From an uncultured Bacilli bacterium (GTDB lineage: Bacteria; Bacillota_I; Bacilli_A; RF39; UBA660): a stretch of DNA of 64,000 nucleotides. Of the stretch, positions 34,595 through 59,900 are shown in pieces. A program made the translations under genes and the position numbers. The DNA lies in the NCBI GenBank assembly GCA_910580135.1, contig CAJTXC010000001.1:2425-66424 (forward strand). The letters are read 5' to 3'. The notes under the pieces are model-generated. The model had not been told where the DNA came from. It searched no databases and saw only the letters and a list, made by a program, of their open reading frames with translations. The number at the start of each line of letters is the position of its first letter. Within the stretch, counting starts at the first letter, position 1.

Positions 34595-34625
34595 TGTTCT
34601 TAATAATAAAATCAATAGTAAATGT

Positions 34626-37509: not shown

Positions 37510-40500
37510 ATGGCACAGATAATTCCTAAATTAAATCTTAATAAAACTCCTTCTATAATAGAATCTAATAGTTTAGTATTTGCTAAAAATATCAGACTTG
37601 ATATTGATGGTTCTATTCATAAAGATTATGGGGTTTTCCCAATGAGTATTCATAAGGGAAAAAATACAGATAATCTTGTTAATTATAAAACTATTCTTAA
37701 TAGGATTATTTCTGATATAGAAGAAAGTACAAAAGGAACAGAAACTCCTGAAGATTATATTCTTCTTAGTTATGTTCATCTACAATGGATTTCTGGTAAA
37801 GAAATAAAAGATGAAGATAATAATGTAATTGCCAGTAAAGGAACTCATAAAATTGTTGGTATTATATCTAACAGTAATGAGTTCTATATCTTTATTAATG
37901 GTAATTGTGTTAGAGGTACTGATTCAAATGGTAAAGATATAACAGAAGTATATAACTTTATTATTTGTTATGACGAAAAAGAAGATAGATTTTATCCTTG
38001 TAACTGTAATTGGAATTGGTCTGGTGGAACAATAACTGGTTGTGTTATAAATAATCTTCTTGGAGAAAAGATTCTAAATATTGGAGAAAAAGATGCTACA
38101 ACATTAGTTCCTTTAAAGTGTATAAATTTAAATACATCTACTATAGGTGATGATGAAAGAATTTATACACAAACTTCTAATATTCCTATTACTAATCTTA
38201 ACTTTATAGGTTCTTTTAATTATGTTATTCCTAATGGAGTATATCAATTCTTTGTAAGATATAAAATTAGAGATAATTTTTATACTGATTGGTTTCCTGC
38301 AAGTAAAGAATTATTTGCTGGTAATAAGAATATAAATAATACAAGTTTTGGTACTGTTAAATTTGTAAATACTCATAGAGATTCTGATAATAGTTTTAAG
38401 TTTTCTGTTGAACATCTTTTCATTAATCAAAAATATAATTATCAAAGTTTCCAAATAGGTTTCATTATTTCACATGATGATGCTATAATGGCTCGTGCTT
38501 GGAAACATTTTGATTTTAATGTAAATACTATTAATTTTGATTATAATGCAAGAGATGCTTATGAAATAGAAGTTATAGATTTACTTAAGAGTGCTTATCA
38601 ACTTTATGATGTAGGTAATATTACAAGTTTTAAAAATAGACTTTATATAGCTAATTATAAAGAAACTGATTTTAATGAAGATTTACAAGATAAAGCAAAC
38701 GAAATAAGAATTGAAATTACTGACCAAAGTGCTACTAGCGGTTATGATGGTTATCCCATTATAGAACGTACTCTTAATGGAAAAACTGTTATTGCTGGTC
38801 TTAAAATAGGAGAAGAAGAACTTTCTTTTAGTGGTTCTAATGGTATAATAGATAAACTTTTAAGATTAAAAAATAATTATAATGATGAAAGTGTTAAAGA
38901 TGCTATAATAGATGCTATAGGTAGTAATTCAAGTAATGGTTATAGATGTGGTGCTAAACAATGGTCTATTCAAATTAGTGGTAATAAGCAATCTTTAACT
39001 GGTGCTCAAAATCAGTTTAGATATAGTCATTCAGGAAATGATTATAGTGGCTTTATTTTTCAAATAGCTATTCAGAATATAAAAGTAGGAGGTAGTTATA
39101 TTAATACTTTTACTATAGATGCTATTCTTTCTGCTATTTATAGTAAAACTAGATATTTAAATGAAAGTTGCATTTTCATAAATAATTCTGGAGCTGAAGA
39201 TTATCAAGTAGATATTGAAATAATAAGAAAATGTTCTTATACTCATAAACATTGGGTACCTAATGGAATGAAACCTTACGACCCAAGTTTAGGTGATGAT
39301 TATATAGATGTAAATCCAGGTGGTGATAATTTAGGAAGACCAAGTGATACTATTATTGGTGGAAGCGGTGGTCATTACGAATATACTACAGTAAATTCTA
39401 CATATACTCAAACTATTTCTCTTAGATTATGGGGAGATAGAAGTAAATATAAATCTACAGATTCTAATCTTCTTTTAGGATATACTACTCTTATTCCTTA
39501 TCAAAAATATAAATTTTATATTCATTATGTTAAACAAAATGGTGAAATAACTAATGGATATTATTGCAATGGTAGAACTGGAGGAATAAAAACTGTTCCT
39601 TATAAAAGTGCTGTTGATTCTGTTATATTTCCTAAATTTACTAATATTAATCTTCCTAAAGGATATGTAGCTTGTTTCTTTAGTATAGTTCATGTTGAAA
39701 ACACTGTTGCTACAGTATACGACATTAATACTGATAATACATACGGAGAAGCAAGTTGTATGGATATTAATGTTGGTCTTATGCCAGGAAGTGATAACAT
39801 GACTATTAAACAAGGTTTTACTTCAGCCTCTGGTGGTATAGGTGACATAGGTGGCGTAATAATAAATCCTGATTTTCCTATAATAAAAGACCCTATTATA
39901 ACTGCTAGTGAAAATAATGAAGAAGAACAATCTGATATAACACCCACTTTACCCCCAATATCAACAACTCAAACTGAAATTAAAACAAATAGTGCTAAAT
40001 ATTATTATAGTAGTGATACATCTAATATAAGATATTTTGGTGCTGACGGTATTATTCAGTTTGATAAAGATTCTAATATAGTTAGCGGAAAAGTAGCTTA
40101 TCTTGTTAATGATTATACTATATCAGATGCAGAAGATACACAATTAACTAAATGTACTCCATTTATAAATCCTCTTACTCTTTCAAAAGAGAATAATGTT
40201 ACAGTTTATTCTTCTTTTGATAATATGAATTTATTAGGATTTATTTGTGCTATAAATCCTTTGCATAGAGAAAGAACTATTAAATATTATACTGATGGTT
40301 CTTCTGTTTATCTTAAAAAAAATATAGAAGAAGCTGAAGATGGTACTGGAGCATATTTTTCTCTTGTTGAACTTAAAAATCATTTATTAGATGCTTCAAC
40401 TTATGATGAGAAACTTACAGCTTTAAGTATCATAAACACAGATATAGAATATATTTATTCTAATTATAACTTAAATTATATGGGTCTTAATGAAGACCCT

Positions 40501-41973: not shown

Positions 41974-43847
41974 GTAGAATAAGACTTAAAGATGATGGTA
42001 AGCCTCGTCATAAAGCTTTATTTGGTGCAGATGGTGCTGTGATGGCTGCTGCTACATTAGCTGCTGCTGGTATTACTGCTGGTGCTACAGCTGCTGCTGC
42101 TAAATCTCAAGCTAAAGCTATGGTAGAAAATGCTAAAACTCAAGCACAATCTATAAAAGACCAAACTACTAATAGTAATAATCTTCAAAAAGAACAACTT
42201 GCTTTTACTCGTTCTCAAAATCAAGAGAACAGACAACAACAGCAAGATATTCAAACTACTCTTCAGCTTATGGCTGGACAAGAGAATATGAATGATAGAA
42301 TGGAACGTAATAAAATGCAAGTTAGACTTGGTGGTAAACCTAAACGTAGAACTATCACTGCACCTTTCTACGGGGGAGGTCAATTCCAAGTAACTGATGG
42401 TGGTGGAGTTATTCCACTTTCTGTTACACCTGACGGTTATGGTCTTTATGAGCTTTATGGTAATGACCACGAACATTATCATAAAACTTCTGGTGGAAAG
42501 AACAAAACCGGTGTTGGAATTAAATTCAATGACGGTTCTGTTGTAGAAGGAGAAGGCAACCAAAATACTAATCAAGGTGAACTTCTTTATGTTACTCCTA
42601 ATGATGCTATGTTTATTTCAAAACATAGCATTGGTGGTTTTAATCCTACTCAAGCAGTTATGAGTGGTGTTCATCCTGAACAAGCTTTTGCTATTCAAGA
42701 AACACTTAAAGATGAAAAAGGACTTAATGATGATGGTAGTAAATCTAAACGCCGTAGTCTTAAACGTATGCTTGGTGGTCCAACTCAATATCCTGAACAA
42801 GTTAATATGACACAAAATCCTAATAACGGTACAGGTTCTGTTGCAGGTGGTGTCATATATGGTATAAATAATTCAACCACCTCCCCCGTAGAAAAGCTAA
42901 AATATAACAATGCTATTGCTAAACATGGTGGTCGTATTCATCTTAAATGTGGTGGTAGACGTAAAGCTGCTTGGGGTGATTATGCTGGAGCAACTTATAA
43001 TGCAGCAGGTAATCTTCTTGGTGCTGGTATTTCTACTTGGGGAAATATGTGGGCTTCTAATAGACTTGGTAAAGCATATAATGAAGCTGGTAATATTCTT
43101 GCAGATGCTTATTCTCAAATGCATGGTATTGATATGAGTGAACTCAAAATGGAAGATTATGCTGCTCCTCATACTTTAGCTGTTGTTAGAGATGCAAATA
43201 ATATAAGTTATGACCCACAAAGAGAACGTATTCATCGTAATTCTGCTTCTGAACGTAGAGAAATAAATCGTGGAACTTTAAGTTCTGCTGCTCGTCAGCA
43301 AAGACTTGCTGCTACTAATGATAGAATGTTCCAACGTATTAGTGAAGTAGATGCTACAGAAAATAATGCAAGAGAATCTATACGACAAGGTAATGCTGAA
43401 CGTATAACTCAAACTGCTCAAGCTAATGCAGATAGAGATGTTCAAGCTCGTAGAGATTTTGGTAATCAAAGACTTTCACTTCTTCAATATAATAATAATA
43501 TTGAAAATGCTAAGATAGCGGGTATGGCTCAAGCTCGTGCTGATGCGCTTACTCAGTCTTCTATGGCTCATGCACAAGGTATGCAAGCAAGTATGTCTGC
43601 TATTGGTTCAGGACTTGCTAATTCAGGTCAAGGCTTTGCTTCTGCTTTTGATGCTGCAAGAAAAGAAAAAACAGATTTTACTAATACTTATATAGGATTA
43701 GGAGATATAGATAAAGTAAATGCTGCTATTCTTAGATATAAGCAAACAGGAGACAAATCTTTTATAAATAGTTTATTAGCTGGTAATACAATAAGTGACG
43801 AAGCTAGAGCTAAATTACAAGATACACTAACTAAAAAGAAAAGTTAA
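41970..43847 (+). CDS. putative internal/ejection protein (625 aa), Ala-rich hydrophobic N-terminus, Q/N-rich
   Basis: The N-terminal segment is ALFGADGAVMAAATLAAAGITAGATAAAA. It contains an inverted motif pair (42367 and 42881). Confidence 0.4.
   Translation: MSRIRLKDDGKPRHKALFGADGAVMAAATLAAAGITAGATAAAAKSQAKAMVENAKTQAQSIKDQTTNSNNLQKEQLAFTRSQNQENRQQQQDIQTTLQLMAGQENMNDRMERNKMQVRLGGKPKRRTITAPFYGGGQFQVTDGGGVIPLSVTPDGYGLYELYGNDHEHYHKTSGGKNKTGVGIKFNDGSVVEGEGNQNTNQGELLYVTPNDAMFISKHSIGGFNPTQAVMSGVHPEQAFAIQETLKDEKGLNDDGSKSKRRSLKRMLGGPTQYPEQVNMTQNPNNGTGSVAGGVIYGINNSTTSPVEKLKYNNAIAKHGGRIHLKCGGRRKAAWGDYAGATYNAAGNLLGAGISTWGNMWASNRLGKAYNEAGNILADAYSQMHGIDMSELKMEDYAAPHTLAVVRDANNISYDPQRERIHRNSASERREINRGTLSSAARQQRLAATNDRMFQRISEVDATENNARESIRQGNAERITQTAQANADRDVQARRDFGNQRLSLLQYNNNIENAKIAGMAQARADALTQSSMAHAQGMQASMSAIGSGLANSGQGFASAFDAARKEKTDFTNTYIGLGDIDKVNAAILRYKQTGDKSFINSLLAGNTISDEARAKLQDTLTKKKS
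42367..42378 (+). repeat. iterated motif, exact TCTACGGGGGAG
   Basis: Context caccTTTCTACGGGGGAGGTcaa, inside ORF 41970-43847, read in a different frame as PFYGGGQ. Confidence 0.9.
42881..42892 (-). repeat. iterated motif, exact (CTCCCCCGTAGA)
   Basis: Context CAACCACCTCCCCCGTAGAAAA, same ORF, read as STTSPVEK. Confidence 0.9.
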
Positions 43848-43853
43848 TATATT

Positions 43854-45137
43854 ATGGCAGATATACCTACTATGAGTCTTAAAGCAGCACCTATGCAATT
43901 TGCTACTTTTACTCCTGTACAATATACTCCTCAAACAGCTGATCCAACACTTCTTTCGAGGTCTATGGCTGCTCAAGAGGCTAGACAAGAAAAAGCTAAT
44001 CAATATTTATTAGCTATAGATAGTACATTAGCTGAAAAAAGAAAACTTCTTAATAAAGCTGATTATGATTGGATGGCACAACAAGCTAATGCTGTTAGAT
44101 CTGAAGTAGATAGACAATTAGAACTTGGTAATTGGCAAAGTGCTATTCGTGTTGCTCAGCAATCTGCAAGAGATTTGACTAGAAATACAGAATTAGAAGA
44201 TAGAATAAGAGCTAATGAAGCATATACAACAGAACGTAACAAAATACAATCTGGTAATTATAGTTCTTATACTAAACGTAGATGGGATGCTATAAACCAA
44301 TATCAATTTAATGGAACTGCTGATTGGACTCCTACTTTTCGTCCTGTAACAGATATGTCTGTTGCTGATATTTGGAATATAGCTGTTAGTAGAACTCCTA
44401 TTAGAAGTAAATCTTCTTCTTGGTCTAGAACTGGTAATACTCATACTTTTTTAGACAATAATGGTAATTTAATTACAGATATAACGGAACAACATACTGA
44501 TGAACAAGGAAATACAAACATACGAGTAGCAGACGGTGTTATAGGTACATACTCTACTACAACAGAAACTCATGGTGGAAGTAGTTCTGTTCAAGAAAAA
44601 AGAGAATCTGATATTATCGCTATATTTAACAATATGTTAAAAGATGATAATATTAGAGGAGCTTTACGACAAGAATATGATAATATGCTTTGGCTATATG
44701 ACCAAGCAACTTCTATTATAGCTAATCCTAATGCTACAGAAGAACAGTTAAAACAAGCTAGAGCTGATTTAGATGTTGCTACTAGTAGTTTATCAAATAA
44801 AGATGGCTTTATATACGCAGGAAATGATGAAGATTTTAATGCTTGGGTAAATGCTCAAGCGGCGCAATATGCTAAAGATAGTGCATATAGACATACTTCT
44901 ACGAGTAAAAATGATAGTGTTACTACTTCTTATAGCGATGGAGCATTAGGTACAGTAAATTCTAATAGAAACGTTCAAGCTATTAATATGTACAGTCCTG
45001 GTTTTGCTACAACTGTAGGTCCTAATATTACTTATACAGCTGTTCCTTATTTAGGAAATTATAATGCGGCTAATATTATGCCTTTATTATATCCTGTACA
45101 AAATACTGTTCCTACTAATTCAAATACTACTAATTAA
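43854..45137 (+). CDS. hypothetical virion protein (427 aa)
   Basis: ATG ORF. Confidence 0.55.
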   Translation: MADIPTMSLKAAPMQFATFTPVQYTPQTADPTLLSRSMAAQEARQEKANQYLLAIDSTLAEKRKLLNKADYDWMAQQANAVRSEVDRQLELGNWQSAIRVAQQSARDLTRNTELEDRIRANEAYTTERNKIQSGNYSSYTKRRWDAINQYQFNGTADWTPTFRPVTDMSVADIWNIAVSRTPIRSKSSSWSRTGNTHTFLDNNGNLITDITEQHTDEQGNTNIRVADGVIGTYSTTTETHGGSSSVQEKRESDIIAIFNNMLKDDNIRGALRQEYDNMLWLYDQATSIIANPNATEEQLKQARADLDVATSSLSNKDGFIYAGNDEDFNAWVNAQAAQYAKDSAYRHTSTSKNDSVTTSYSDGALGTVNSNRNVQAINMYSPGFATTVGPNITYTAVPYLGNYNAANIMPLLYPVQNTVPTNSNTTN

Positions 45138-45149
45138 ATTATAAATATT

Positions 45150-46919
45150 ATGGCTGATATTAATCAAGAAATATTACAACAATATTATGATAGTAGAAAT
45201 TATGCAGCTGCTGCTGAATATTTGAAAACAGCTACTGCTAAAGATTATCGTTCACAACAACAATTAAATGCTCACATAAGACAACTTGAACGAGATGCTG
45301 CTATTCAAAATTCTATATATACTGGACTAGATGCTAATCAAAAAGAAGCATATGTTTTTATGCAAGGAATGAATGGAGCAGGTACTATTCCTCGAAATAG
45401 AACTATAACAATTAACGGAGTACAAACTCAAGAAGTTAATAGTTATGGTACTAATTATTTGAATTATATGAATTCTCTTAGAAGTAATGATGGAACTGCA
45501 TTAGACAAGATTGCTATAAATGTAAATAGCGATGATGATTTAGCTCTTTTAACTTCTAGTTTAGGTTTTCAAAATATTAATTCTAATGACCTTGGTATTT
45601 CTTATCAATCTTTAGGAGAAGGAAAACATAGAATTCTATTAAGTAGAGATAATAAAAATTTATATAAAGTATTAAATGCTGTAAACAATATTTCTTCTAG
45701 AAGCGGATTGGATATAGCAAATAATATAGCAGGCAAAACTGCTGTTATGGCAGGTATAGGTGGAGCAGGAGGCGCAATGTTTGCTGGTGTAGGAGCTATT
45801 CCTGGAACTATTGTAGGTGGAGCTGTAGGTCTTGGTGGAGGTATAGTAGAAGAAATATATAATGCAGTGACTAATTCAAATAGATTTGATATTTACGGTG
45901 TAGCACCAAGTGGTAAAGTTTATTCTACAGATGAATTTAATTATAATAATCTTGAAGCTGCTATGTCTGAAGTAAATAAAGCTAATGAAATTTATTCTTC
46001 TATAAATGCAAATAAAGAAAAAGAACAAACTTTTACTACAGAAACTGTAGTTACCCAATTTTTAGGTGCAGGTCATGCTGAAGCATTTAAAGCTCTTCAA
46101 CAAGGTAGAATTGACCAAACTACTTATGATAAAATTACTAAAAATTGGGAAGATGCTTATGACAGACTTATAAGTGGAGCTGATTTTACTAAACATGAAA
46201 TATATGCTTGGTCTGCTGATTCTGGTGAAGGTGTTAATCTTACTAAAGTAGATAATGCTAATGTTCCTGATTTAAAAGGAGAAGTTTTATTAGCTATGAA
46301 AGAAGGAAGAGTTGCTAAATCTCTTTGTGTTAAAGATGGAGAAATAGGTACTCTTCTTACTATAACTCCTCAAACTGATAAAAATGGCGAATGGTCTGAA
46401 GGAAAAGGAGATGTTCAGAAAAAAATATTCATTCAAGGTCTTTTTGAAGGAACTGCTGAACAAGCATTTGAAGCTGATACAAAAAGTAAAGCTGCAAGAC
46501 AAAACGCCGATATGAAACGTTGGAATTATGAACAAAAACTTTCTAACGGTGTTACAGTAGGGTATTCATCTGGTTCTCCTTATATTAAAGCTCCAGATTC
46601 TAATGGAAACATGGCTATATCTGCAATAACAGAAGAAGATATGGTTAGAAATCTTAATGAATCTGTTATTCTTGAAAATAGTGTATTAGAAGTTTTATCT
46701 AATTTAGATGAAAATGGAGAATTACCGTATCAAACAATAAATGGTCGTAGAATTAGACCTACAGTAGAATCTATGCTTAATGCTTATTCTATAGCAGCTA
46801 CTAATGAAATGTATCCAAAAGGTTCTACTACAGAAAGAGAAAGAATACAATATCAAAATAATATGTATAATGCTATGAAATCGTTATACGATAGGTATTA
46901 TAATTATCAACATAATTAA
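45150..46919 (+). CDS. putative internal/ejection protein with glycine-zipper membrane segment (589 aa)
   Basis: The membrane-type segment is AVMAGIGGAGGAMFAGVGAIPGTIVGGAVGLGGGIV. Confidence 0.4.
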   Translation: MADINQEILQQYYDSRNYAAAAEYLKTATAKDYRSQQQLNAHIRQLERDAAIQNSIYTGLDANQKEAYVFMQGMNGAGTIPRNRTITINGVQTQEVNSYGTNYLNYMNSLRSNDGTALDKIAINVNSDDDLALLTSSLGFQNINSNDLGISYQSLGEGKHRILLSRDNKNLYKVLNAVNNISSRSGLDIANNIAGKTAVMAGIGGAGGAMFAGVGAIPGTIVGGAVGLGGGIVEEIYNAVTNSNRFDIYGVAPSGKVYSTDEFNYNNLEAAMSEVNKANEIYSSINANKEKEQTFTTETVVTQFLGAGHAEAFKALQQGRIDQTTYDKITKNWEDAYDRLISGADFTKHEIYAWSADSGEGVNLTKVDNANVPDLKGEVLLAMKEGRVAKSLCVKDGEIGTLLTITPQTDKNGEWSEGKGDVQKKIFIQGLFEGTAEQAFEADTKSKAARQNADMKRWNYEQKLSNGVTVGYSSGSPYIKAPDSNGNMAISAITEEDMVRNLNESVILENSVLEVLSNLDENGELPYQTINGRRIRPTVESMLNAYSIAATNEMYPKGSTTERERIQYQNNMYNAMKSLYDRYYNYQHN

Positions 46920-46928
46920 AATTTTAAT

Positions 46929-49900
46929 ATGGATATTCAAGCTATTTTTAATGCAGGAGGAACTGTTATTAAAAATCCTAATTATAAAAAAAGAAAAAAG
47001 AATACTCAACCAGAGTATATAACAGTTTCTGATTTAGATTCAGGAATTGCTCCTGATGGAAGTATTGTAGCAGATATAGCGTACAAAGCTGCTGCAAGTG
47101 GAAATCAAGATATATTAGGAAGAAATGGAGAATTAGATAAATATATAGAACATGGTCTTACTCCAAATGGTTGGGAAGATTTAGATGTTCAACTTGCAGA
47201 ACAACAAGGTAATTGGACTAAATTAGGTAACGCTCTTGCTCAAACTCTTGTATCTGAATTAGCTCTTGGAACAGTTAAAGGTTTCAGTGATTTAGGAGAT
47301 TTAATAGGACAAGCTGTTGGACTAAGTGACGGTGATTATTCAAATCCTGTTAGTCAATATCTTGAAGAAAAACAAGAAGAATTTCGTAATTTTGCTCCTA
47401 TATATACAAGACCTGGTGTTAACATAAGTAATGGAGGATTACTTGATGCAGGTTGGTGGACTAGTAATATACCAAGTATTATTAGTTCATTAACTCTTCT
47501 TATTCCAAGTACTGGTATTACAAAAGGTTTATCAGCTATAGGAAAAGCAGCTAATGTAGGTGCTCGTACAAGAAACGCTATACGTGCTGTTAGTGGTGTT
47601 AATCGTAAAATGGTACAAGCTGAACGTCTTAGAGAAGCAGGCAGAACTACTGAAGAAATTGCTGAACTTACTAGACTTAATGGAGTTCAAAAGTTTCTAA
47701 CAAGTGCTAGTACAGCTAAACAAACTTCTCTTTTCTTAGAAAATGCTACAACTGCTGCTCTTAGTAGAGCAATGGAGAATTATCAAGAAGCTCGTCAAAC
47801 ATATAATGATATGTACGCTGAAGCTTCAGAATATCTTAAAGATGATAATAATTATCAGACATTTCTTCAGCAAAATAGTGAATCTCTTAGGCAAGCAGGT
47901 GTTGATGTAAATGATAGAGATGCTGTAGCTAAATATATTTCTTCTTCTGCTGCCGATAGAACCTTTCAAACTGACTGGTTTAATGTTAGTTGGGATGTTA
48001 TTCAAATGTATGGTCTTAGAAATGCTTGGAAAGGACTTAGAAATGCTAAAGATACTCCTTCTGCTGTAAGACGTGCTGAATTAGATGCTCGTAAATATTT
48101 TGGTAAAAAGCCTGAAGAAATAGCTAAACTTAAAGCTCAACGTTCTTTTGGTGAAAAAGCACGAGAATGGGCTAGTGATAGACTTTATGGTTCTAAACTT
48201 ATTGTTGGTTTTGAATTAAGTGAAGGTGCTGAAGAAGCACTTAACTATATTGCTACAGAAGAAGGTATGCGATTTGGTCGTGTTCTTCTTGGAACAGAAC
48301 AAGGAGAAAATAAAGGTGTATGGAGTAACATACTTAATGGATTTGATGGTCGTTTGAAATCTTATCTTCAAGCTCCAGAACTTTATGATGCTGCTTTTTG
48401 GGGTGTTCTTGGTGGTGTAGTTTTTCAAGCTGGTGGTAGTTTTATTAATCGTGTAGGTCAAAAGTTTAATAAATCTGAAGCTGACAAAAATGCTGCAAGT
48501 AAACTCCCGTGGTATCAACTTGACCAACTTCCTGAAAATCAAAGACGTATAGCAGAAATAGAAGCTCGTTCTACTGATTTTGCTAATTACAAATCTCAAC
48601 TTGATAAAATTAATCAAGGAATTGATGTTTATAATTCTACAGAGAATAATGAAGTAAGATTTAATTCTGAAGAAGAAGCTAATGTAGCAAGAGAGAAACT
48701 TAAAGATGAATTTATTGCTAGTATGACTCTTCGTGCAATGAATTCTGGTAATTATGATATGCTTAAAGCTTTTCTTCAAGATGAAAATGTTCGTAAAAAT
48801 TTAATTGAAAGTGGTGTTTTTGGACATGAAAGTGAAAATGGTAAAACATCTGCTGAAATAGAACAAGAAGCTAAAGAATACGTTGATTCTGCTGTTAGAC
48901 GTATGGATGAAATTGCTGATATGTATGAGCAAGAACTTACAGCAGTCGATTACGCTTCTTCTCGTATTGGCAAAGATATGTTAGCCGAATATATGCAAAT
49001 TATAGCTAACAATAATGTTAATACACAACTTGCTCTTAGACAAAATCAACTTTCACTTGCAGGAACTAATGCTAGAATTGCTCAATTAGAAGAACAATTT
49101 AGAGATAATCTTGACCCTAGTATTAATCATGCAAATAATATTAAAGTAGGTCTTATTTCTTCTGAATTAGGTAAACTTTATGCTGAGAAAAAGAAACTTA
49201 CTGAACAGCCTAATAGTCTTAGCAAAACTATAGCACTCGAAAACATTAATAAAAAGATTGAAACTCTTGAAAATGAACTTTCAGATAGTGAACTTGTTTT
49301 TGCTACTTCTTTAGCTCTTCGTTATGTAAAGAAAGAAGATGGTTCTTATGCACAAGAAGATACTGAAGATTATTTTAGATACAGAGATAATCAAATAATT
49401 AATCATACAGAAGATAATGTAGGTTTAACTTTTGACGATACTTTAATAAGTGTTGGACTTTCTCGTCGTGCTAGAACTGTTCTTAGTGATGTAGCAATGC
49501 AAGAATATAAAGTTCTTGAACAAGATGCTGGTAGTAGTTTTGCTACTCTTCGTCAAATTAGTCCAGAACTTAACGATTTGTATGCTGTTCGTGCTGCTAC
49601 AGAATTATCTTCTAAAATGCTTAATTCTGAACTTGTTCGCACTGTAGATGAAGTAAGAGATTATTCTGCTATGCTTCATAATACAATGAGTGAAGCACGT
49701 ATTACTGCAATTGAACAATCCAATAAAACTATACTTGATTTATATAAGAAATATGGTAGAGATATTGAGTTCTATGTAACTGATGATTATAGCAGTAAAA
49801 ATGAAGTACTTAGAAAACTTTCTGAAAGTGAACGTAAAAATCTTGATGATGCTCTTAAAGTTTTAGCACTTACTAAATCTTATAATCGTTCTCTTGGTTT

Positions 49901-52900
49901 ACAACTTGAACTTATGTTTAGAAATCATGATGCAATAGTTGCTAGTCAAGATAGTGCTTTTATAGATGAAGAAAGTGAGGAAAACTCCACAAATTTAGAA
50001 GGCGATACAGACACTATTAACCCAGACCTTGACAATTACACAGGAACAACCGAACAAGACGACACAGAGCAAGTAATCGGGCAAAATGACGATATTACGC
50101 AGCCGAATGACCCCCAAAATATCTCAAACCGAACTCCTGCTTATTATGCTAAATTTTGGTTTCCAAAAGGTGTTCTTTCAAGTAGTAGACATAGTAGCAC
50201 AGATAACGGTGGAGCAGCAGTTTACGATAATGGAGATGGGACATTTACTTTAGATGTTCGTGATGATAAAAAAGCTCTTAACGATTCTCGTTTCTTTGCT
50301 AATGCTGATGAAGTAGATTTAACTCGTCCTTATGAAATAGTAGAAAAACCTATTCTTAAAAAGAATAAAAAAGGTAAACTTGAAGTTTATAAACAAGGTA
50401 GACTTGTTAATACTGATACATTAGAATATCAAGCTGCTCAACAAGCAGAAACTCAAGAAGAAGTTCAAGATGAAGTTCAGACTGAGGAAACTCAAGATGA
50501 AACAGTTGAACAACCTATTGAACATACTACTGAAGAAGAAGTTGAAGAAACTACTCAACCTGAGCAAGTAGAAGCTGACAACCCTTCTACGGGGGAGGTA
50601 GTTGCTGAAACTACTTCAGTTAATACAGAAAGTTCTGCTCCTGTTTCTGTTTATGATGAAGTTGTTCCAGATGAAGTTACTACAGAAGATGAAATTCGTA
50701 TGGCTAGTCTTGGAAGATTTCAAAAAGAATTTAAAGCTAATAATGATGTAGATTTAGATTCTATTGCTAGTGAAATCATAAACGAAGAAGTTAGAAAAGG
50801 TAGAGATAGACAAATGGTAGAAGCAGCTGTTAATAAATCTCTTTCTATTATTAAACGAGTAATAGAGCGTAAAAGAGGAAAAGCTGCTGATTCTGTTATG
50901 CAAAGTTCTGTTGATGAAGTTATTGTTCAATCAAGTATTGTAGAGCTTACAGCTAGAAATCCTTTTATTAAAGATTATACTGATGCTGTTAAGTCTATGA
51001 TAAATGAATTTTGTAAGGAAGTAGGTATAAATGAATATAATGGCAAAAAGTATATCAATCTTGAAGATTTACTTAGATATGTAAATACTATAACAAATGA
51101 TAGTCAAACTTCTAATATGATGTTTGACGCACTTAAAGTTTATCTTACTACAGACGAAGCTAAAAAAGAGTTTATAACAACTGATGAAACTCAGAATAGT
51201 GATACTCTTAAAAAGAATATAGCTAAGTCTGCTGCTCAACGTTATCAAGAAAGACTTTCTGATACTACTACACAACGAGTAGATATTTGGAGTCTTCGTA
51301 GAACTATGTCTTCTAATAAAGAACTTCAAGAATTTGAAGAAGCACTTGAGGCTATACAAAAAGGAGATAAACTTACTTATGTAAAAGAAGATAAAAGAAT
51401 TGTTCTTAAAGATTCTAAAGGTAGAATTGTCGGTACTTTAGCTATTCCAAGTATCAATCCTAAAACTGGTGCTTATGAAATAGCTAATGATGGTTGGAGA
51501 TATGATATTATTTCTCAAACTGGTGGTAATATAAATAGTAATCTTAAAACCCTATTTTCTCGTTGGCTTAATGAAGTGAATGATGCAAGTAAAGAACTTA
51601 ATGCTATTATTTACGAATTAGCATTTGAAAATGTAAGTCCTGAAAGAAAGAAAGAACTTCTTGTTAAATTTGCTAATAATTCTGAAATTAAATCTGCCAG
51701 AAATAATGGTTTTATAGATGCTGCTGCAACTAATGAAAAACTTATTAATGGTCTTGTTAAACTTTGGAGATACCAAAATTATACAGATGGAGATGTTACT
51801 ACTTTACGTAATAAACGTATTGATAGAACATTGAATACTTGGTTTAGCAAACTTCGTAATAGTTATGATGGAGTTAGTTATCTATTAAATGAAGAAAATG
51901 GAGAAATAGAAGTAACTAATATTAGTGATGGCGAGATAATTAGAGCTTCAGAAACTAATGGACAAGAAGCTGCTCTTCCTGTTAATAAGGCAATAGCTGG
52001 TGGTGTAAATCCTTCTATTCATAAATTAGCTATAGCCTCTAATAACGCTAATCATCTTACTGTTTCAGGTATGCCTGATATTCATTTTTCTGGTGTAGGT
52101 AAAATGAATACTTTTGTTCTTTTACCTAATAGAAACGGAAGTTATGAATATGTTCAAGCATATCCTGCTGATATTACTGATGATTATATAGGAAAAGATG
52201 CCAAAGAAATAATTAAAGCAATTCAAGATAGAGTAGAACAACTAATTGAAACTCATGTTAAACAACCTACTCAAGAAAGTTTCGAAGCTATTAAATCTTT
52301 TGTTAAATCTGTTCTTAGTAATCATAATGGTAATAGTAGTCTATTTTGGAATCTTACTCTTTTTGAACAAGGTAATACTTTTGGTATTTCTTTGAATAAA
52401 GATACTAAGATTGTTATAAATGCTACAACAGGGCAAGTAGATATTTCTAAATCAGAATATAAACCTAATAAAAAAGGATTTAGACAAATAAGGGTTGATT
52501 TAAATAGTAAACAAGCTAAAGATGCAATATCTGAACTATTAAATAATCTTAGATTTAATCTCAATCCTACTTATATAGCTTCAGATAATGCTACAAATAC
52601 TATTTTAAATGGTATAGTTAAACGTAGAAATGGTAAATTTGAAATAACTATTGGAGATAGGACTTGGTCATACGATAGTTTCAATGATTTTATACTTTCT
52701 AATAATCTTGTTAGACTTAATACCAAACCAAATGAAAGAGGAACAAGTAATTTTACTCCTCGTGGTAGTCGTAGTCAAAGTGGTAATCAAGTATTAGAAA
52801 TTAGAATTAATAGTACAACCACCTCCCCCGTAGAAAACCTCATAGAAACTCAATCTACTGAACCTGTTATTCCAGATACTAAAAACATTTCTATTCCTGA

Positions 52901-53894
52901 AAGAGCTATTGCTATTCTTAACGGAACACAACAAAGTAGTCATAAAGGTAATGATATTGCTGCTTTAATATTTAATGAAAAACAGTTAAAAGCGTTCAAA
53001 GAGTTGCAATTATTACCGGAAAATATTATATTTGACGAAAATTTCAATAATAAAGAAGGATATGAAACAATTAATGCTGAATATAATGTTAAGACAAGAC
53101 AAATAACTGTAGGTAAACGTTGGCTTGATATGTTTAATAATCCTACTACTCGTAATCAAGCTATTCGTAAACTTATTCATGAGCAACTTCACTATAAGAT
53201 TGGACGAAACAAAGGATATGTTAGAAGTGTTCAAAGTATATATGATGAATTTAAGGAATATCTTGATAAAAATAATGTTCCTAAAGATGCACATATTAGA
53301 GCTTATCTTTTTGAAGGAAAGAAAACTCAACTTGAAACACTTGAAGAATTTCTTGTTGAATCTCTTACAAGTCAAGAACTTGCTCAGTATCTCAATAATA
53401 TAGAAACTACTGTTCCAATTAAATATGGTGCTAAGAACCTATGGCAAAAAATAATGAAAGTTCTTAGTGATATATTTGGTTGGGGAATAAATAAAGGTAG
53501 TCTTTATGAGAAAGAACTTAATACTATTCGTAATTTAAAACTTGAAGATTCCGCTGCTGAAACTTCTACAGAAACAACTGAAACTGAACAAGAACAACCT
53601 GCTACAACAGAAGAAGTTGAAACTAAAGAAGAAAAAGTAGAAGAAAAGATAGAAGTAACAGACGAAGAAGATAGTTCTACAAATGATGACGATTTTGTAG
53701 ATATAAGTGATGATTTAATAGATGAATTTGATAGTAGTGTTACAGAAGAACCTATTGTTAATAGAGATGGTAGTACAAATCTAATGTCAAATGTTCCGTC
53801 TATTCAGTCTATTACTGAAACATTACCGTTAGACCAACAGCCCGAATTTGCCTCTCTCGTGGCTTCTGCTGAGATTGAAACCTCTTGCCGATGA
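46929..53894 (+). CDS. giant virion protein (2321 aa) with C-terminal zincin HExxH motif and acidic low-complexity tracts
   Basis: HEQLH is encoded at 53178-53192 (IRKLIHEQLHYKIG). There are E/Q/T/D-rich tracts around aa 1170-1230 and at the C-terminus, and hydrophobic Gly-rich segments near the N-terminus. Confidence 0.6.
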   Translation: MDIQAIFNAGGTVIKNPNYKKRKKNTQPEYITVSDLDSGIAPDGSIVADIAYKAAASGNQDILGRNGELDKYIEHGLTPNGWEDLDVQLAEQQGNWTKLGNALAQTLVSELALGTVKGFSDLGDLIGQAVGLSDGDYSNPVSQYLEEKQEEFRNFAPIYTRPGVNISNGGLLDAGWWTSNIPSIISSLTLLIPSTGITKGLSAIGKAANVGARTRNAIRAVSGVNRKMVQAERLREAGRTTEEIAELTRLNGVQKFLTSASTAKQTSLFLENATTAALSRAMENYQEARQTYNDMYAEASEYLKDDNNYQTFLQQNSESLRQAGVDVNDRDAVAKYISSSAADRTFQTDWFNVSWDVIQMYGLRNAWKGLRNAKDTPSAVRRAELDARKYFGKKPEEIAKLKAQRSFGEKAREWASDRLYGSKLIVGFELSEGAEEALNYIATEEGMRFGRVLLGTEQGENKGVWSNILNGFDGRLKSYLQAPELYDAAFWGVLGGVVFQAGGSFINRVGQKFNKSEADKNAASKLPWYQLDQLPENQRRIAEIEARSTDFANYKSQLDKINQGIDVYNSTENNEVRFNSEEEANVAREKLKDEFIASMTLRAMNSGNYDMLKAFLQDENVRKNLIESGVFGHESENGKTSAEIEQEAKEYVDSAVRRMDEIADMYEQELTAVDYASSRIGKDMLAEYMQIIANNNVNTQLALRQNQLSLAGTNARIAQLEEQFRDNLDPSINHANNIKVGLISSELGKLYAEKKKLTEQPNSLSKTIALENINKKIETLENELSDSELVFATSLALRYVKKEDGSYAQEDTEDYFRYRDNQIINHTEDNVGLTFDDTLISVGLSRRARTVLSDVAMQEYKVLEQDAGSSFATLRQISPELNDLYAVRAATELSSKMLNSELVRTVDEVRDYSAMLHNTMSEARITAIEQSNKTILDLYKKYGRDIEFYVTDDYSSKNEVLRKLSESERKNLDDALKVLALTKSYNRSLGLQLELMFRNHDAIVASQDSAFIDEESEENSTNLEGDTDTINPDLDNYTGTTEQDDTEQVIGQNDDITQPNDPQNISNRTPAYYAKFWFPKGVLSSSRHSSTDNGGAAVYDNGDGTFTLDVRDDKKALNDSRFFANADEVDLTRPYEIVEKPILKKNKKGKLEVYKQGRLVNTDTLEYQAAQQAETQEEVQDEVQTEETQDETVEQPIEHTTEEEVEETTQPEQVEADNPSTGEVVAETTSVNTESSAPVSVYDEVVPDEVTTEDEIRMASLGRFQKEFKANNDVDLDSIASEIINEEVRKGRDRQMVEAAVNKSLSIIKRVIERKRGKAADSVMQSSVDEVIVQSSIVELTARNPFIKDYTDAVKSMINEFCKEVGINEYNGKKYINLEDLLRYVNTITNDSQTSNMMFDALKVYLTTDEAKKEFITTDETQNSDTLKKNIAKSAAQRYQERLSDTTTQRVDIWSLRRTMSSNKELQEFEEALEAIQKGDKLTYVKEDKRIVLKDSKGRIVGTLAIPSINPKTGAYEIANDGWRYDIISQTGGNINSNLKTLFSRWLNEVNDASKELNAIIYELAFENVSPERKKELLVKFANNSEIKSARNNGFIDAAATNEKLINGLVKLWRYQNYTDGDVTTLRNKRIDRTLNTWFSKLRNSYDGVSYLLNEENGEIEVTNISDGEIIRASETNGQEAALPVNKAIAGGVNPSIHKLAIASNNANHLTVSGMPDIHFSGVGKMNTFVLLPNRNGSYEYVQAYPADITDDYIGKDAKEIIKAIQDRVEQLIETHVKQPTQESFEAIKSFVKSVLSNHNGNSSLFWNLTLFEQGNTFGISLNKDTKIVINATTGQVDISKSEYKPNKKGFRQIRVDLNSKQAKDAISELLNNLRFNLNPTYIASDNATNTILNGIVKRRNGKFEITIGDRTWSYDSFNDFILSNNLVRLNTKPNERGTSNFTPRGSRSQSGNQVLEIRINSTTTSPVENLIETQSTEPVIPDTKNISIPERAIAILNGTQQSSHKGNDIAALIFNEKQLKAFKELQLLPENIIFDENFNNKEGYETINAEYNVKTRQITVGKRWLDMFNNPTTRNQAIRKLIHEQLHYKIGRNKGYVRSVQSIYDEFKEYLDKNNVPKDAHIRAYLFEGKKTQLETLEEFLVESLTSQELAQYLNNIETTVPIKYGAKNLWQKIMKVLSDIFGWGINKGSLYEKELNTIRNLKLEDSAAETSTETTETEQEQPATTEEVETKEEKVEEKIEVTDEEDSSTNDDDFVDISDDLIDEFDSSVTEEPIVNRDGSTNLMSNVPSIQSITETLPLDQQPEFASLVASAEIETSCR
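50586..50597 (+). repeat. iterated motif, exact TCTACGGGGGAG
   Basis: Context caaccCTTCTACGGGGGAGGTAGTTgct, inside ORF 46929-53894, read as NPSTGEVV. Confidence 0.9.
52823..52834 (-). repeat. iterated motif, exact (CTCCCCCGTAGA)
   Basis: Context CAACCACCTCCCCCGTAGAAAA, same ORF, read as TTTSPVEN. The 22-nt context is identical to the copy at 42881. Confidence 0.9.
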
Positions 53895-53960
53895 TTTATA
53901 TTAGTCGGCTAACAAAGTGGCTCAAATTAGATAAAAATAAATTAAATAAATTATAATATT

Positions 53961-56900
53961 ATGAGTTGTAATCTTTTTATAGATAGCACAGAAGTTAATA
54001 ATGCTATTGTAGCAGCAAGTAAAGGAAATAGTATTCTTGCTACAAGATATACTCTTGAATTTAAGAGTGAAGCGTTTGCTAAAGAACTTAAAGATAAATT
54101 AGGATTAAGTATTGATGAAATTCCTAAAAATAAACTTAATGAAGTAGTCAAACTTCTGCAAGAATATCATAATAGACTCTATCCTGATATTAATTATAGT
54201 ACCAAGCTTAATACGAGTGATTCTCCAATCACTCGTTTCGGGTATGATAGTGTTGCTACTCGTGAATTTGGTAAGAAACTTGCAGCTAATTTTATGTTAA
54301 GTGCTTATCATCAACTTGTTCATGATAAAGGTAAAACAATACAACAAGCTCTTAAAGAAATTAAAGAGAAAACAAAGAAAGATATATCTCCAAGAGATTA
54401 TTTTGCTAATACTGTAGTAGCTAAAGTTAAAAAACTTATTATTGAAAGAATTGTAAGTAGAAAATTAACTACTAAAGAAGAAGTTTTGCAATTAATGAAA
54501 ACAAATAATACTGCAAAACTTGAAGAACTATTTGCAAAAGATAATCGTATTGAAGATGCCAATCTTCTTGCTATGTATAAAGAAATACTTGGCAATAGAC
54601 GAGCTTTCTTTGAAGAAGTATTTCGTAATAACGCTCTTGGAGAACTTAGACTTAAGAAACAGCCTATAGCAGAAGATACTTCTTATGAAGCAATAGATGA
54701 ACAAGTAGAAGAAGAACTAGATTCTGAAGAAGGAAATGATTCTCCTACTGATGATAAAAACAATTCTATTAAAGAATTGAATGAAAAACTTGGTGACTAT
54801 AATAACTTTATGACTCATGTTGGAATGAGTATCAGAGGTTATTTTTCAAGTCTTCCTAGAATTATAAATGGTGAAAAATCTAACGGTAAATATGTTCAGG
54901 ATACCAATAATCCTTTTGGCATAGCAGATACAATGTCTGCTGCTCAATGTATTGCTGTTCTTTATTCTTATGGTAACTTCACTAATACAAAAACTATGAT
55001 AGATAGTATTCGTGAAATTGCTGATAATGTTCCGGGAATGGCAGCGTTTCATCAAGTTGCAGATTATCTTGACACTAATATTAGTTTTGCATTTGAAGTA
55101 TATAGAACTTTTGGTAAAGCTATTGTTAGCAAAATAGAAACTACAGATGCTAGTGGAGAATTTGGTAGTAGAACAAGTAATAGAACTGCTGATAAACTTA
55201 CTACACTTAAATTTGAATTTTTTAATAGTGCTAAGTCTACAAGTATTCGTTCTGAAGTAGAACATAGTAGTGATATATTTACTTCTATAAGTAAAAGACT
55301 TAAAGATTTACGTCAATTTAAAAAAGATATTGACTCAGATAGTTCTGTAAGTCCTGAAGATATAGAGGATTTCAATGAAGAAGTAAAGAAAGTTGCTACA
55401 GATTTATATAATCTTCTTAAACGATATTATCCTACTCTTTCAGATAAAGCTATAATAAATTATGTTAATTCTGGAAATCAAGTAGATAATCTTGCTAACT
55501 TAAGTAATATAGCTCAGCTTACAATAAAAGGAGCAGAGAAGAGTAAATTTACTTATGACAGCCGTCAAGCTGACCTTAATGCTCTTTATAGTAAAAGATA
55601 CCAACTTACACAAGCTCTTGAAAATGGCGAAAAGATAAGAAATGGTGCTTTTGAAGAAATTGAAAATCAACTTAATCAGCTTTATTCTATTGATTATGTT
55701 AGCAAAGAAACTCAAGAAGCTGCTTATCAATTAGCTGATGCCCTTGTTAAATTTAGTCTAATTAAGACTGAACTTAATTCTCGTAACGTACATGGTAATC
55801 AATCATCTGATGTTATTAACAACAGTATGATTACTAATATTATAAATACTCTTAAAGACCAAACAGCATTAGAGAATTTTGGTAAATATAAAGGACAATC
55901 CAAACAATATGATTTCAGTAATATTATGATTGAGCATCGTGATGAAAATGGAAATCTTATTAATTATGGATTGTTTACTCAGAATCCAGATAGTAAAGAA
56001 CTTACTCCTACTCCTTATGCTTACAGACTTCTTCAAAATACTTTATTTAGTGGTGCTGGTAGTGTAGTAGATGGTAAAAATGTTCTTTATTCTGAAATGA
56101 GTAGAGGTGACTATACTACTACAGCTTTCATTAATTTCTTTAGAACTGAAGATGATTTTAGTCAACAAACTGAAGCTGATAAAATAGCTTTTGCAGAATA
56201 CTTTATGCGTATTCCATCTGATGCTCCTAAGAATTTTATTATTAAAGCTCCTAAATATTCTGTTAATGGATTGTTTACAAAAGACGGTGTTAATACAAAT
56301 CATCCTATTTTCCAACAGTTTAGACAAGTATTTATACAAGAGCTTCAAGATATGGCTACAGCTATAAATGTTCTATTTGAACATGAAAGTGGTAAAGTTC
56401 GTCTTGATACAGATGAAAAATCACCTACTTATGGTATGCCTATATTTAAGCCTGGATTTGCTAATGATGCAGAAACTGCTCGTAAACTTTATAATAACTA
56501 TCATACTAAGAAAGGTAAAATTCTTAAAAAACTTTCTACAGGTCAATATAGTCTTTTAGGAGATGTATTTACTTCTGATAGGTTTAAAGTTACTATTCTT
56601 AATGAAAATGGTAAACTTGAAGCTGTTAATTTTGCTGATGAGATATTAAAACATTTCAATCTTCTTTACGGGGGAGCTAATAATACTTATCTCCATACAA
56701 CTACCACAAGCAATGGCGTGACTGTTCAACTTACCGATGAACAAAGTGCTATTATAAATGAACAACTTTCTAAGTTTATTATAGCTTACTCAAGTAGAGC
56801 TGTAAATGAGCTTAATGTTTATAGGAATTTTATTCCTGAAGGACTTCTTACAAAACGTAATGCGGCTGAATTTGCTCTTAATCATAGACTTATGTATATT

Positions 56901-59900
56901 AACTTCAATGATTTATTTGAGGGAGATACTAAGTTTTATAAAGATACACAAACTTTTCTTAAACGTGCTAAAGAAGCACAAGGTTCTGGTGTTCCTTATG
57001 GTATTGTAAATTATCAAATGGATTTATCCGAAGAACCTACTCTTGTTGAAAGTCCTCTTAATAATATAACATTTAATCACATATCTGTTGATGGAGTTAC
57101 TTCTCAAGTTAAAATAAATCAATATAGTAAATTTAGAGGAGTAACTATTAAAAATACTATTAGAACTGGTGATACAATTGGTACATTTGTAACTGATAAT
57201 AATGGTAATCCAGTTAAAGACGAAAATGGTAATTATAAGTTTGAAAAGCCTGGAGTTTTAGCTAAGACTCTTATAGATGCTCTTGTTGCATCTGGCATGA
57301 GTAAACCAAATGCTAAAATTCATGCTGCTAATATGATGGTGGGTTATACTAACACTACTGTCAATGATGCACAATCTTATATTACTTTTGAAGAATGGGT
57401 TCGTCGTATAACTGCTCGTGGTCAACTTCCTCAATATAAAGAACTTATAGATGCTGTACTTGATGAAACTAAGCCCTTAGATGCTAAAACTATTGGTCAG
57501 TTTATTCAAGTACAAAAGAACTTTTATTATGACCAACATTATAATGCTGAACTTGGAGTTATAGCTCCTCGTCAGATTAAAAATGCTGAATTTGTTATCG
57601 TTCCTCGTCTTGTTCGTGGTACACAACTTGAACAAGTTTATAACTTAATGCGAGAATTTAATATCGACCAGCTTAATACAGAAGAAACTTCTAAAGCAGG
57701 TAAATGTAATGTTCTTATATTATGGGATAATGAAGGAAATTTGACTGACGCTAATATAGCAGATTTTAGAGCTAATGCTGTTCATGCTACAGAATATTAT
57801 AATTATAATTATCTTTATACTCAACAAGAAACTCCTCAACATCTTGCAGCTGAGAACAAAGCTGGTATTCAGATAATGAAGAAAATTATAGATAACATTG
57901 ATTCTAATAGTGAACTTTATCCTCTTAAACAAAAGTTCTTTAATTTATATTCTCAAAATATTGTAGATAGTTATGAGAATTTAATGCAAGAACTTCATAT
58001 TAAACAAGATGAAAATGGAGAAATAAGTGCTTTTGACCAAGCTATTCTTTATGATATGCTTAAAGAAGAAGTTGGTCGTCTTGGTCTTGATAGTAATATG
58101 ATGGATTATGTTACTCTTGACAGGGATGGTGTTCCTATGATGCCAACTTATATGAGTAATGTTTCTACTAAACTTGAAAGTATTGCTCAAAGTTTGTTTA
58201 ATAATCGTATTACTCGTCAGAAACTTCCTGGTTGGCATGCTGCTCAGATTACAAATGTTGGTTGGACTGCTCTTAACGATACAGTTGATAAACGTAGTTA
58301 TAGTAAAAAACTTCAATATCATCCTGATGGTAAGCCTTATGTTGAAATAATGCTTCCTAAGAGCAATTTCCAAAATCTTGAATATAATAAACCAGATGGT
58401 ACTACTAAAACAGATGAAGAACTATTAGCAGAACTTGCTGAATCTGGACTTGATACAATGATTGGTTATCGTATTCCAACTGAAGGTAAACAATCTGTTT
58501 GTATTATGAAAGTTGTTGGGTTTACAGATGATGCTCTTGGTTCCACTATTGTAGTTCCTGATGATTGGGTTTCTCAAACTGGTTCTGACTTTGATATTGA
58601 CTCTGTTTATGGTATTCATTTTAGTGGAGAAGTAAATAAAGAAACTGGTAAATTAGAAAAAGTTCAATATAATAAAGAAGATAAACGTTCAGATAGAAAA
58701 ACAAAAGGACGTAATAATGAACTTCTTCAAACTATGATTGATATTCTTTCACATCCAAGTTCTTTAGAGGAAAATCTTTCTCGTTCTAACTTTGAAGATA
58801 TTATCAACGATAGAGATGAAGTTATAAATTCTGAACTTGCTAAACTTAGAAAAGCTCGTTCTCCTTATGATTTCTTCGACCAAGCTGCATATCAAGAAGA
58901 TGTAATGAGTGGTGCTAAACTTAAAGCATTTAGTGTTACTCGTGATACTTTTTGTTCTATATGTAATACAGTTCGTCCGAACATTAGTGTAGGTAAAACT
59001 GTTTCTGTTATTTATAAGAAAGATGACGGTTATACTGAAGCTGGTCTTAAGAAACATTTTGGAAATATAAAAAGACTTAAAGATGGTAGTGGTTGGATTG
59101 TAACACATGATACTTTAGGTTGGACTTTAGATAATAAAAATGTTGTTGGAAAGATTCTAACAGCTTATTCATCTCAAACTACAGCTCATATTCTCGATGC
59201 TGTAAAAGAAGGTTCTATCCCTAATGTTAATGATTTTACTTTCCAAGTATATAAGTTATTTCCTGATATAGGTTCTGATTATAAAACTGCTATTGCATTT
59301 ATGATGCAACCTGGTGTTACTAGAATAGTAAATATTTATAATGCTAATAAATCTATATATGGAGAAGAATCTGGTAATGCTATAAATGAAGCTATTAAAC
59401 AAATAGCTACAGAAATACTTAAGCTTGATGGAATTTCTATTCCTAAAAATGCTAGTGTAAAAACACTACTTAATAAACTTAAAAATATTTCTTCAGAAAT
59501 AGCAGAATTATTTGATGTAGTTGAAGCTGATAAATTTAAAATAGAAGATACAGCAGCAGCTAATATGCTTAATATTTCTGCTTCTAAACTTAGAGATAGA
59601 ATTAATCAAACTGGTGAGTTTAGCACTACCTCCCCCGTAGGAAGTAGAAATCAATTACTTTATGATTTAGGTGTTATTCTACAATATAATAAACTTAATA
59701 TTTTAGCTAATGATATTTCTGCTTATGCAAGAGTTTGTAATCCTGATAAGTTTGGTGCTAAGCAAACTATTTATGCTACTGCTAAAGTATTTGATGATAT
59801 TCAAACTCTTGTAACCGCATCTAACCCTTCTCTTACTGTAAATGGTAGAAGTTTTATTGCTGCTATTTATCCTGAAGTATTTAGAGGTATAGATGGTTAT

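Follow-up and report, generated by a model that had tools for sequence, protein, structure and literature searches.

What does a short GC-rich word do when it recurs on both strands of a phage genome, and do its copies act in pairs? The question is raised by a 64,000-nt stretch of contig CAJTXC010000001.1 (assembly GCA_910580135.1, positions 2,425 to 66,424; hereafter the window), in which an original prediction had described a 16-bp motif as inward-facing plus/minus pairs, one pair inside each giant virion open reading frame (ORF), and had proposed long-range RNA-RNA or single-stranded DNA pairing, or paired protein-binding sites, rather than random scatter. We found that the motif is a genome-wide cis-acting DNA element of gut crAss-like phages, that its copies form two independent, regularly spaced, strand-specific series, and that selection acts on the nucleotides themselves and not on the protein. 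The underlying phenomenon is broader than the one originally described.

The window derives from a crAss-like phage (Intestiviridae, Obtuvirinae-like) with a genome of ~95 kb; its G+C content is 30.8%, and every long ORF lies on the plus strand. A megablast search with 5 kb of the window against GenBank phages returned zero matches, and relatives were located by the TerL protein, which is 88% identical to that of Wotdevirus murinus ctcc615 and 82% identical to that of Hacihdavirus cr271_1 (both Intestiviridae, Obtuvirinae), and 59% identical to that of the prototype crAssphage Carjivirus communis (p-crAssphage, BK010471). A public 95,358-bp contig, which contains the ORF of window 500-1075 unchanged and agrees letter for letter with the first 2 kb of the window, was the source of 9.5 kb of DNA upstream of the window.

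Fifteen copies of TTTCTACGGGGGAGGT with at most three mismatches lie in the window, compared with 0.10 expected from shuffles. A weight-matrix scan of the window plus the 9.5 kb upstream yielded 17 copies at 18 bits or more, with everything else scoring below 8 bits. The motif also contains 15 of the 19 G5/C5 runs of the window. The consensus is asymmetric and about 16-20 bp long (A-W-Y-Y-Y-TTCTACGGGGGAG-S-T), and the orientations of the 17 copies, in order, are - + + - + + - + + + - + - + - + -. Fourteen copies fall within ORFs and three are intergenic. All eight copies cited in the original prediction were present; its coordinates pointed to the right sites but ran ~2 nt too high. The copies and their degenerate partner arms are as follows.

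-7884 (minus) and -4694 (plus): upstream copies, an outward-facing pair
1085-1100, plus: motif TTTCTACGGGGGAGCT, intergenic, 10 nt past the stop of ORF 500-1075; 5' arm of a 16-bp hairpin (1087-1102/1108-1123)
1108-1123, minus: degenerate antisense arm TTAGTTCTCTCGTAGA, which pairs with the 1087-1102 copy via three G.U pairs
3990-4005, minus: motif with 2 mismatches, in the linker of i-spanin-like ORF 3867-4157; encodes TTPPVE
4181-4196, plus: exact motif, in the linker of o-spanin-like ORF 4114-4461; encodes LSTGEV; position kept in ctcc615 and cr271_1
10164-10179, plus: motif in ORF 9953-11236, with no minus partner nearby; orthologues in ctcc615 and cr271_1, plus one within 48 nt in p-crAssphage
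17454-17469, minus: motif in ORF 16983-17738; encodes TSSPVE
17644-17659, plus: variant GGGGGTGC in ORF 16983-17738, 190 nt from the minus copy at 17454
21599-21614, plus: motif, the sole copy of giant ORF 20962-25827
33538-33553, plus: motif with 1 mismatch, in ORF 33408-33830 (DUF7841)
34498-34513, minus: motif with 2 mismatches, intergenic; 5' arm of a 102-nt hairpin (34497-34598) upstream of an HNH endonuclease gene
34578-34596, plus: degenerate copy CAACCTAATCGGGGGAGTG, 3' arm of hairpin 34497-34598
42365-42380, plus: exact motif in ORF 41970-43847; encodes FYGGG; the cr271_1 copy is at the same place in another frame (LLRGS)
42879-42894, minus: exact motif in ORF 41970-43847; encodes TSPVE; lineage-specific, being absent in cr271_1 and degenerate in ctcc615
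50584-50599, plus: motif with 1 mismatch, in a disordered linker of ORF 46929-53894; orthologues within 3-48 nt in ctcc615, cr271_1 and p-crAssphage
52821-52836, minus: exact motif in a linker of ORF 46929-53894; same-orientation orthologues within 1-2 nt in ctcc615, cr271_1 and p-crAssphage
56663-56678, plus: variant TCTTTACGGGGGAGCT with 3 mismatches, in the virion RNA polymerase (RNAP) ORF; orthologues within 2-5 nt in ctcc615, cr271_1 and p-crAssphage
59628-59643, minus: motif TTCCTACGGGGGAGGT with 1 mismatch, in the virion RNAP ORF; orthologues in ctcc615 and cr271_1, none in p-crAssphage

The copies sit where coding allows, namely in disordered linkers of giant virion genes, in spanin linkers and in intergenic spacers. 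ORFs 3867-4157 (with an N-terminal membrane helix) and 4114-4461 (with a lipobox-like LLDCS) overlap and resemble a spanin pair, with one motif copy in each linker. A free-standing homing-type endonuclease gene (HNH_3 plus NUMOD1, 34626-35168) lies directly downstream of the motif-built hairpin 34497-34598.

Selection at the nucleotide level is indicated because the motif occurs in both orientations, in three reading frames, in very rare codons and in intergenic copies. Six plus copies encode STGEV and two encode FYGGG, and the third frame, LLRGS, is used by the cr271_1 copy orthologous to 42365. All minus copies read TSPVE, since the remaining two frames give a stop codon or LPRR. The motif is built from rare codons of the genome, with ACG accounting for 1.8% of Thr, GGG for 2.5% of Gly, CCC for 2.5% of Pro and TCC for 1.8% of Ser codons, and its sequence is near-invariant over more than 120 copies. 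A protein sequence motif was ruled out by the use of three frames and both strands, by invariant third positions and by the choice of the rarest codons.

About 30 crAss-like IMG/VR contigs, 66-84% identical in nucleotide sequence, contain the exact 15-mer, and there are 17 copies in cr271_1 and 21 in ctcc615. p-crAssphage carries 31 copies of a sister motif, CCATCCTCYACGGGGRGT (tCCATCCTC-YACG-GGGRGT), and PhiCrAss001 (Steigviridae, MH675552) carries 27 copies of CTTCTGGAG where chance would give 0.34, read in every frame and pointing either way; conservation extends over 14-20 nt in Intestiviridae and over 9 nt in PhiCrAss001. A simple k-mer screen of the marine crAss-like phage phi14:2 revealed no comparable motif. 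Comparing copy positions in relatives, a check that the original prediction had itself suggested, showed that many are orthologous and keep their orientation. When positions were mapped through protein alignments with ctcc615, cr271_1 and p-crAssphage, window copies fell within 1-5 nt of same-orientation copies in ctcc615 and cr271_1, and for 52821 (minus), 56663 (plus), 50584 (plus) and 10164 (plus) the nearest p-crAssphage copy lay within 1-48 nt even though the proteins are only 24-37% identical. Sites that are orthologous while their sequence is lineage-specific imply that one trans-acting reader co-evolves with all copies of a genome. A host repeat was rejected as the source of the motif, as the 18-mer TTCTTCTACGGGGGAGGT (the commonest in the relative lineage) gave 5 scattered matches in 185,579 bacterial species genomes (596 Gb), none of them in Bacteroidales.

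In p-crAssphage, several of the 31 copies are followed by GC-rich runs of AGCGN pentamers (e.g. 28087/28173, 44963 and 95865), and intergenic spacers hold tight inverted pairs at 22911/22928, 28087/28173 and 95755/95865. The hexamer ACGGGG is entirely absent from the 100 kb of PhiCrAss001 on both strands. In the searchable papers, neither the motif strings nor crAss repeats led to a description of the motif, only to unrelated primer matches. The preprint on the phi14:2 RNAP reports early transcripts without a common motif and middle and late promoters of host type, and the PhiCrAss001 paper mentions no phage motif.

We then asked how the copies are arranged relative to each other by counting all pairs in four genomes (the window phage, ctcc615, cr271_1 and p-crAssphage) against random positions and orientations. 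The counts below list same-orientation pairs observed, same-orientation pairs expected and opposite-orientation pairs observed; expected counts for opposite orientations were near-identical to those for same orientations.

Less than 1 kb: 0 observed, about 10 expected; 14 opposite
1-2 kb: 0 observed, about 10 expected; 3 opposite
2-3 kb: 3 observed, about 10 expected; 12 opposite
3-4 kb: 6 observed, about 10 expected; 13 opposite
4-5 kb: 7 observed, about 10 expected; 9 opposite
5-7.5 kb: 31 observed, 25 expected; 20 opposite
7.5-10 kb: 35 observed, 25 expected; 27 opposite

Same-strand pairs thus numbered 0 compared with 20 expected below 2 kb, and 16 compared with 30 at 2-5 kb, while opposite-strand pairs occurred at expectation. 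No same-strand gap was shorter than 2 kb in these four genomes, and the minimum in PhiCrAss001 was 1.5 kb. When PhiCrAss001 was added to give a set of five genomes, the minimum gap per strand ranged from 1.5 to 7 kb, and the coefficient of variation (CV) of the gaps was 0.30-0.70, compared with ~1 for random placement; it was 0.30-0.46 on 8 of the 10 strands, and over-dispersion reached P<=0.01 in one or both tests on 8 of the 10 strands. The 9-nt motif of PhiCrAss001 showed the same per-strand regularity. Rotation tests showed no relation between the positions of the minus and plus series (P = 0.07-0.87 across the five genomes), and tight pairs below 600 bp were in mild excess only, which we attribute to the scarcity of permissive places. 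Sense and antisense copies numbered 48:37 in the four genomes and 13:14 in PhiCrAss001, indicating no tie to the direction of transcription.

These series account for the apparent pairs inside giant genes. Copies recur about every 6-8 kb per strand, so an ORF of 7-10 kb holds ~1 copy per strand, and what looked like pairs at 2.2 kb and 3.0 kb within giant ORFs are neighbours from the two series. The ORFs concerned are the following.

20962-25827, plus: giant ORF (1621 aa)
37510-41973, plus: giant ORF (1487 aa)
46929-53894, plus: giant ORF encoding the RNAP-associated protein
53946 to past the window end, plus: virion RNAP ORF, with the catalytic motif DFDID at aa 1548

One plus and one minus copy per giant ORF is what 46929-53894 and the portion of the RNAP ORF inside the window show, but the rule fails elsewhere: 37510-41973 is free of copies, 20962-25827 has one plus copy, and 41970-43847, which had been counted among the giants, encodes just 625 aa. 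The RNAP homologue in cr271_1 contains three copies, and a further one lies shortly after its stop codon. Nor do the pairs generally face inward, as 3990 (minus)/4181 (plus) and 17454 (minus)/17644 (plus), each 190-191 bp apart, and the upstream pair -7884/-4694 point outward. The interior of the first pair, 42365/42879, is 498 nt and not 502. A special pairing at 2.2-3 kb was not borne out either, with 34 opposite-strand pairs observed at 2-5 kb compared with 30.6 expected at random in the four genomes. Tested against random positions and orientations, same-strand copies are non-random, and plus/minus pairing is at chance apart from the mild excess of tight pairs. The claim that the copies are not random scatter stands for the copies themselves, but the structure behind it is a series on each strand and not a set of functional pairs. 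Paired protein-binding sites are possible just for the minority of tight pairs below 600 bp. Of the fourth pair, 33538/34498, what stood is that it brackets a terminator-like hairpin (33869-33902) and a small ORF (34035-34352). This hairpin has 15 pairs followed by a T-run, comes after ORF 33408-33830 and marks a transcription-unit boundary.

What, then, might read such an element? We tentatively favour, as a reading with a real though less than even chance, a polar, strand-specific DNA signal that would be read by a lineage-specific factor in replication or recombination. Such a signal fits selection at the DNA level, the asymmetry of the motif, its independence of transcription, its even spacing, its co-evolution within lineages and its absence from hosts. 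The reader would be phage-encoded, an enzyme that may move on or scan phage DNA single strands, in either direction, while the DNA is replicated or recombined. The motif could stop or attenuate a helicase-nuclease in the manner of Chi, or serve as a priming (ssi-like) signal for the phage primase, and the regular spacing could arise if a second same-strand site close by adds nothing and decays. Candidate readers encoded by these phages are a RecD-like helicase (AAA_30/AAA_19) and the annotated PD-(D/E)XK nuclease, RecT and DnaG-type primase. The HNH endonuclease at 34626-35168 was set aside as the reader, since relatives carry HNH genes only sporadically, whereas the motif is constant in them. 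The motif could instead act as a phage "self" mark, a Chi-like word on both strands that would turn off the phage RecD-like helicase and PD-(D/E)XK nuclease, with motif-free host DNA being degraded and the word co-evolving in each lineage; we regard this as quite unlikely.

Several points weigh against the polar-signal reading. The readers named above are candidates only, and any activity of the site is a prediction. Known Chi sites are 5-8 nt long and set by the host enzyme, whereas the Intestiviridae site is 14-20 nt. Annotated Gam-like nuclease inhibitors would lower the need for protection from host nuclease, and a per-strand spacing of 6-8 kb is sparse for lagging-strand priming. The strong sense-strand hairpins of intergenic copies with degenerate partners hint at an extra or alternative RNA role. 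The element is not universal, given its absence from phi14:2, and might depend on gut Bacteroidales hosts. The three Obtuvirinae-like genomes share many sites, so the data amount to ~3 independent replicates (this lineage, p-crAssphage and PhiCrAss001).

The hairpins bear on an explanation at the RNA level, in which plus and minus copies of one long late transcript would pair as 16-bp duplexes, or a cUACGg hairpin would fold, with a role in processing, stability or regulation. Any plus/minus pair can form a duplex of -27 to -36 kcal/mol, and strong hairpins arise at two intergenic copies, in both cases with the stabler fold on the sense strand, with -22.3 kcal/mol on the plus compared with -11.1 on the minus strand for 1087-1123 (z = -6.7), and -35.7 kcal/mol for the sense compared with -26.7 for the antisense strand of 34497-34598 (z = -5.3). 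A close relative, L010, has the same 1087-1123 hairpin with different C/T positions, and its partner arm departs from that of the window at C/T changes alone, each preserving a G.U or G-C pair; the intergenic tight pairs of p-crAssphage likewise form long hairpins. However, C-to-T decay of a degenerate C-rich arm gives G.U pairs automatically, antisense copies are about as common as sense copies, the strand pattern ignores the switch in gene orientation, and at least three plus copies have no partner. Long-range plus/minus duplexes were not more stable on the sense strand and showed no sense-strand wobble bias, their complementarity ends at the shared consensus, and differences in their flanks were not compensatory; duplexes inside ORFs would, moreover, be unwound by ribosomes. 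The G-rich strand can be drawn as a hairpin (YYYTTC-TACG-GGGGAG) whose 5' arm varies by C/T only, and a few copies have long extended stems, but across 124 distinct copies the local cUACGg hairpin failed its covariation and slide controls, with 63.3% of cells paired compared with 63.7% after shuffling and 60-62% after slides of 1-2 columns. We consider a role for RNA pairing very unlikely on this evidence, and the long-range version of the original prediction was not supported. The main rival to a polar signal is an orientation-independent protein site on duplex DNA, serving genome organisation or regulation, with close direct repeats purged by RecT-type annealing and inverted ones tolerated. 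It accounts for the orientation statistics, in that same-orientation pairs are missing below 2 kb and scarce up to ~5 kb, with inverted pairs about as frequent as chance predicts, and it is consistent with the annotation of RecT and a PD-(D/E)XK nuclease in all Intestiviridae examined and with the lack of covariation support for a single-strand structure. It is weakened by PhiCrAss001, which is equally depleted (2 same-strand pairs below 2 kb compared with about 7 expected) even though its repeat is just 9 nt, too short to be a serious recombination substrate or to let annealing delete kilobases of DNA at an appreciable rate. Short-repeat deletion is known to depend on distance over a far narrower range than an exclusion zone of several kb, and the gaps are regular (CV 0.3-0.46 on most strands) and not just bounded below. 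We therefore hold the duplex-site explanation to be unlikely.

A selfish GC-rich mini-element or a product of gene conversion, comparable to yeast mitochondrial GC clusters or Rickettsia palindromic elements and of no benefit to the phage, would explain why a GC-rich island stands in frame inside ORFs of a 30% G+C genome and why copies are gained and lost by lineage, the pair 3990/4181 being missing in L005/L041 and 42879 being unique to this lineage. Such an origin appears highly improbable given that positions and orientations are orthologous across subfamilies at 24-35% protein identity, that the sequence hardly varies among copies and that spacing is regular; aligning homologues with and without copies revealed no insertion footprint, as linker residues were replaced without clean indels. 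Another possibility is that the copies are recombination sites of an invertase of the shufflon, Mu G or P1 C type, between which the intervening DNA flips. Neighbouring copies are mostly inverted, as in multiple-inversion systems, and invertases abound in the host order. When each of five pairs was inverted in silico, however, a stop appeared within 7-45 codons and essential virion genes were truncated, all alignments to relatives were colinear, and the gene between 33538 (plus) and 34498 (minus) had the same orientation in 24 of 24 public contigs. No recombinase was found among the window ORFs scanned. Invertases have been described in B. intestinalis (PMC8375218), but for this motif we judge inversion extremely improbable.

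Compared with known systems, the motif resembles Chi in being asymmetric, G-rich, strand-specific and located inside genes, and both would act as polar signals for an enzyme travelling along DNA. Chi density in E. coli is of the same order as that of the motif (about one per 3-5 kb, both strands), and the PhiCrAss001 core CTGGAG presumably resembles Chi-family sequences. Chi, however, is a 5-8-nt word that the host enzyme dictates and that is enriched and skewed on the host chromosome, whereas the motif spans 14-20 nt in Intestiviridae, varies from phage to phage even when their hosts are related, and in its long form is missing from Bacteroidales genomes; regular spacing, moreover, is not a known property of Chi. 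Stoperators of cluster A mycobacteriophages (L5, Bxb1) likewise comprise 20-35 genome-wide copies of an asymmetric ~13-bp site read by one phage protein. They lie in short intergenic spacers of temperate phages, co-oriented with transcription, whereas 14 of the 17 motif copies are inside ORFs in orientations unrelated to transcription. Single-strand initiation (ssi) sites, of the G4 type or ssiA/ssiB of RSF1010, are strand-specific and read by a dedicated, co-evolving primase, and ssiA and ssiB are inverted on opposite strands like the tight motif pairs, but ssi sites are structured hairpins clustered at origins while the motif is genome-wide and its hairpin lacks covariation. REP/BIME, REPIN and yeast mitochondrial GC clusters are also short GC-rich repeats with alternating neighbours, and GC clusters can be intragenic; they are, however, palindromic, mostly intergenic, strain-variable and linked to transposases or gene conversion, in contrast with a motif whose positions are orthologous over deep divergence and for which a palindrome is unsupported.

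crAss-like phages are the most abundant human gut viruses, and to our knowledge the replication, recombination and protection of their DNA are poorly understood. Orthologous sites in essential genes, kept while the proteins around them diverged to 24-35% identity, built from the rarest codons and evenly spaced on each strand, point to an important undescribed step of phage DNA handling. PhiCrAss001 is culturable and has its own 9-nt version, which offers a direct experimental handle. The lineage-specific words are compact markers for classifying crAss-like contigs, and as identity islands they could seed recombination between diverged phages.

Other features of the window include the tail ring proteins and the following genes.

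4463-6745, plus: TerL
7156-9570, plus: portal

A complete diversity-generating retroelement occupies 27900-29742, with its reverse transcriptase at 28489-29742, template repeat at 28182-28316 and variable repeat at 27900-28034; the variable repeat lies at the 3' end of tail ORF 25814-28090, and all 35 differences between the two repeats are at template adenines. A 32-nt inverted repeat (284-315 and 33933-33964, 91% complementary), each arm of which lies in a long AT-rich spacer, may be a shared promoter. Public assemblies of the phage break near 33919 and near 43-49, beside the 32-nt repeats. A genome end between 33538 and 34498 was considered, prompted by two assemblies that break near 33919, and the breaks coincide with the 32-nt repeat. 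The sole match in an Rfam scan of the window was a small RNA gene at 3-75 on the minus strand, which is unrelated to the motif; it matches the FopS family of Bacteroidetes (RF04319; 60.5 bits, above the gathering score), with a partial match to GibS, and lies in the divergent spacer that separates the phage replication and late modules.

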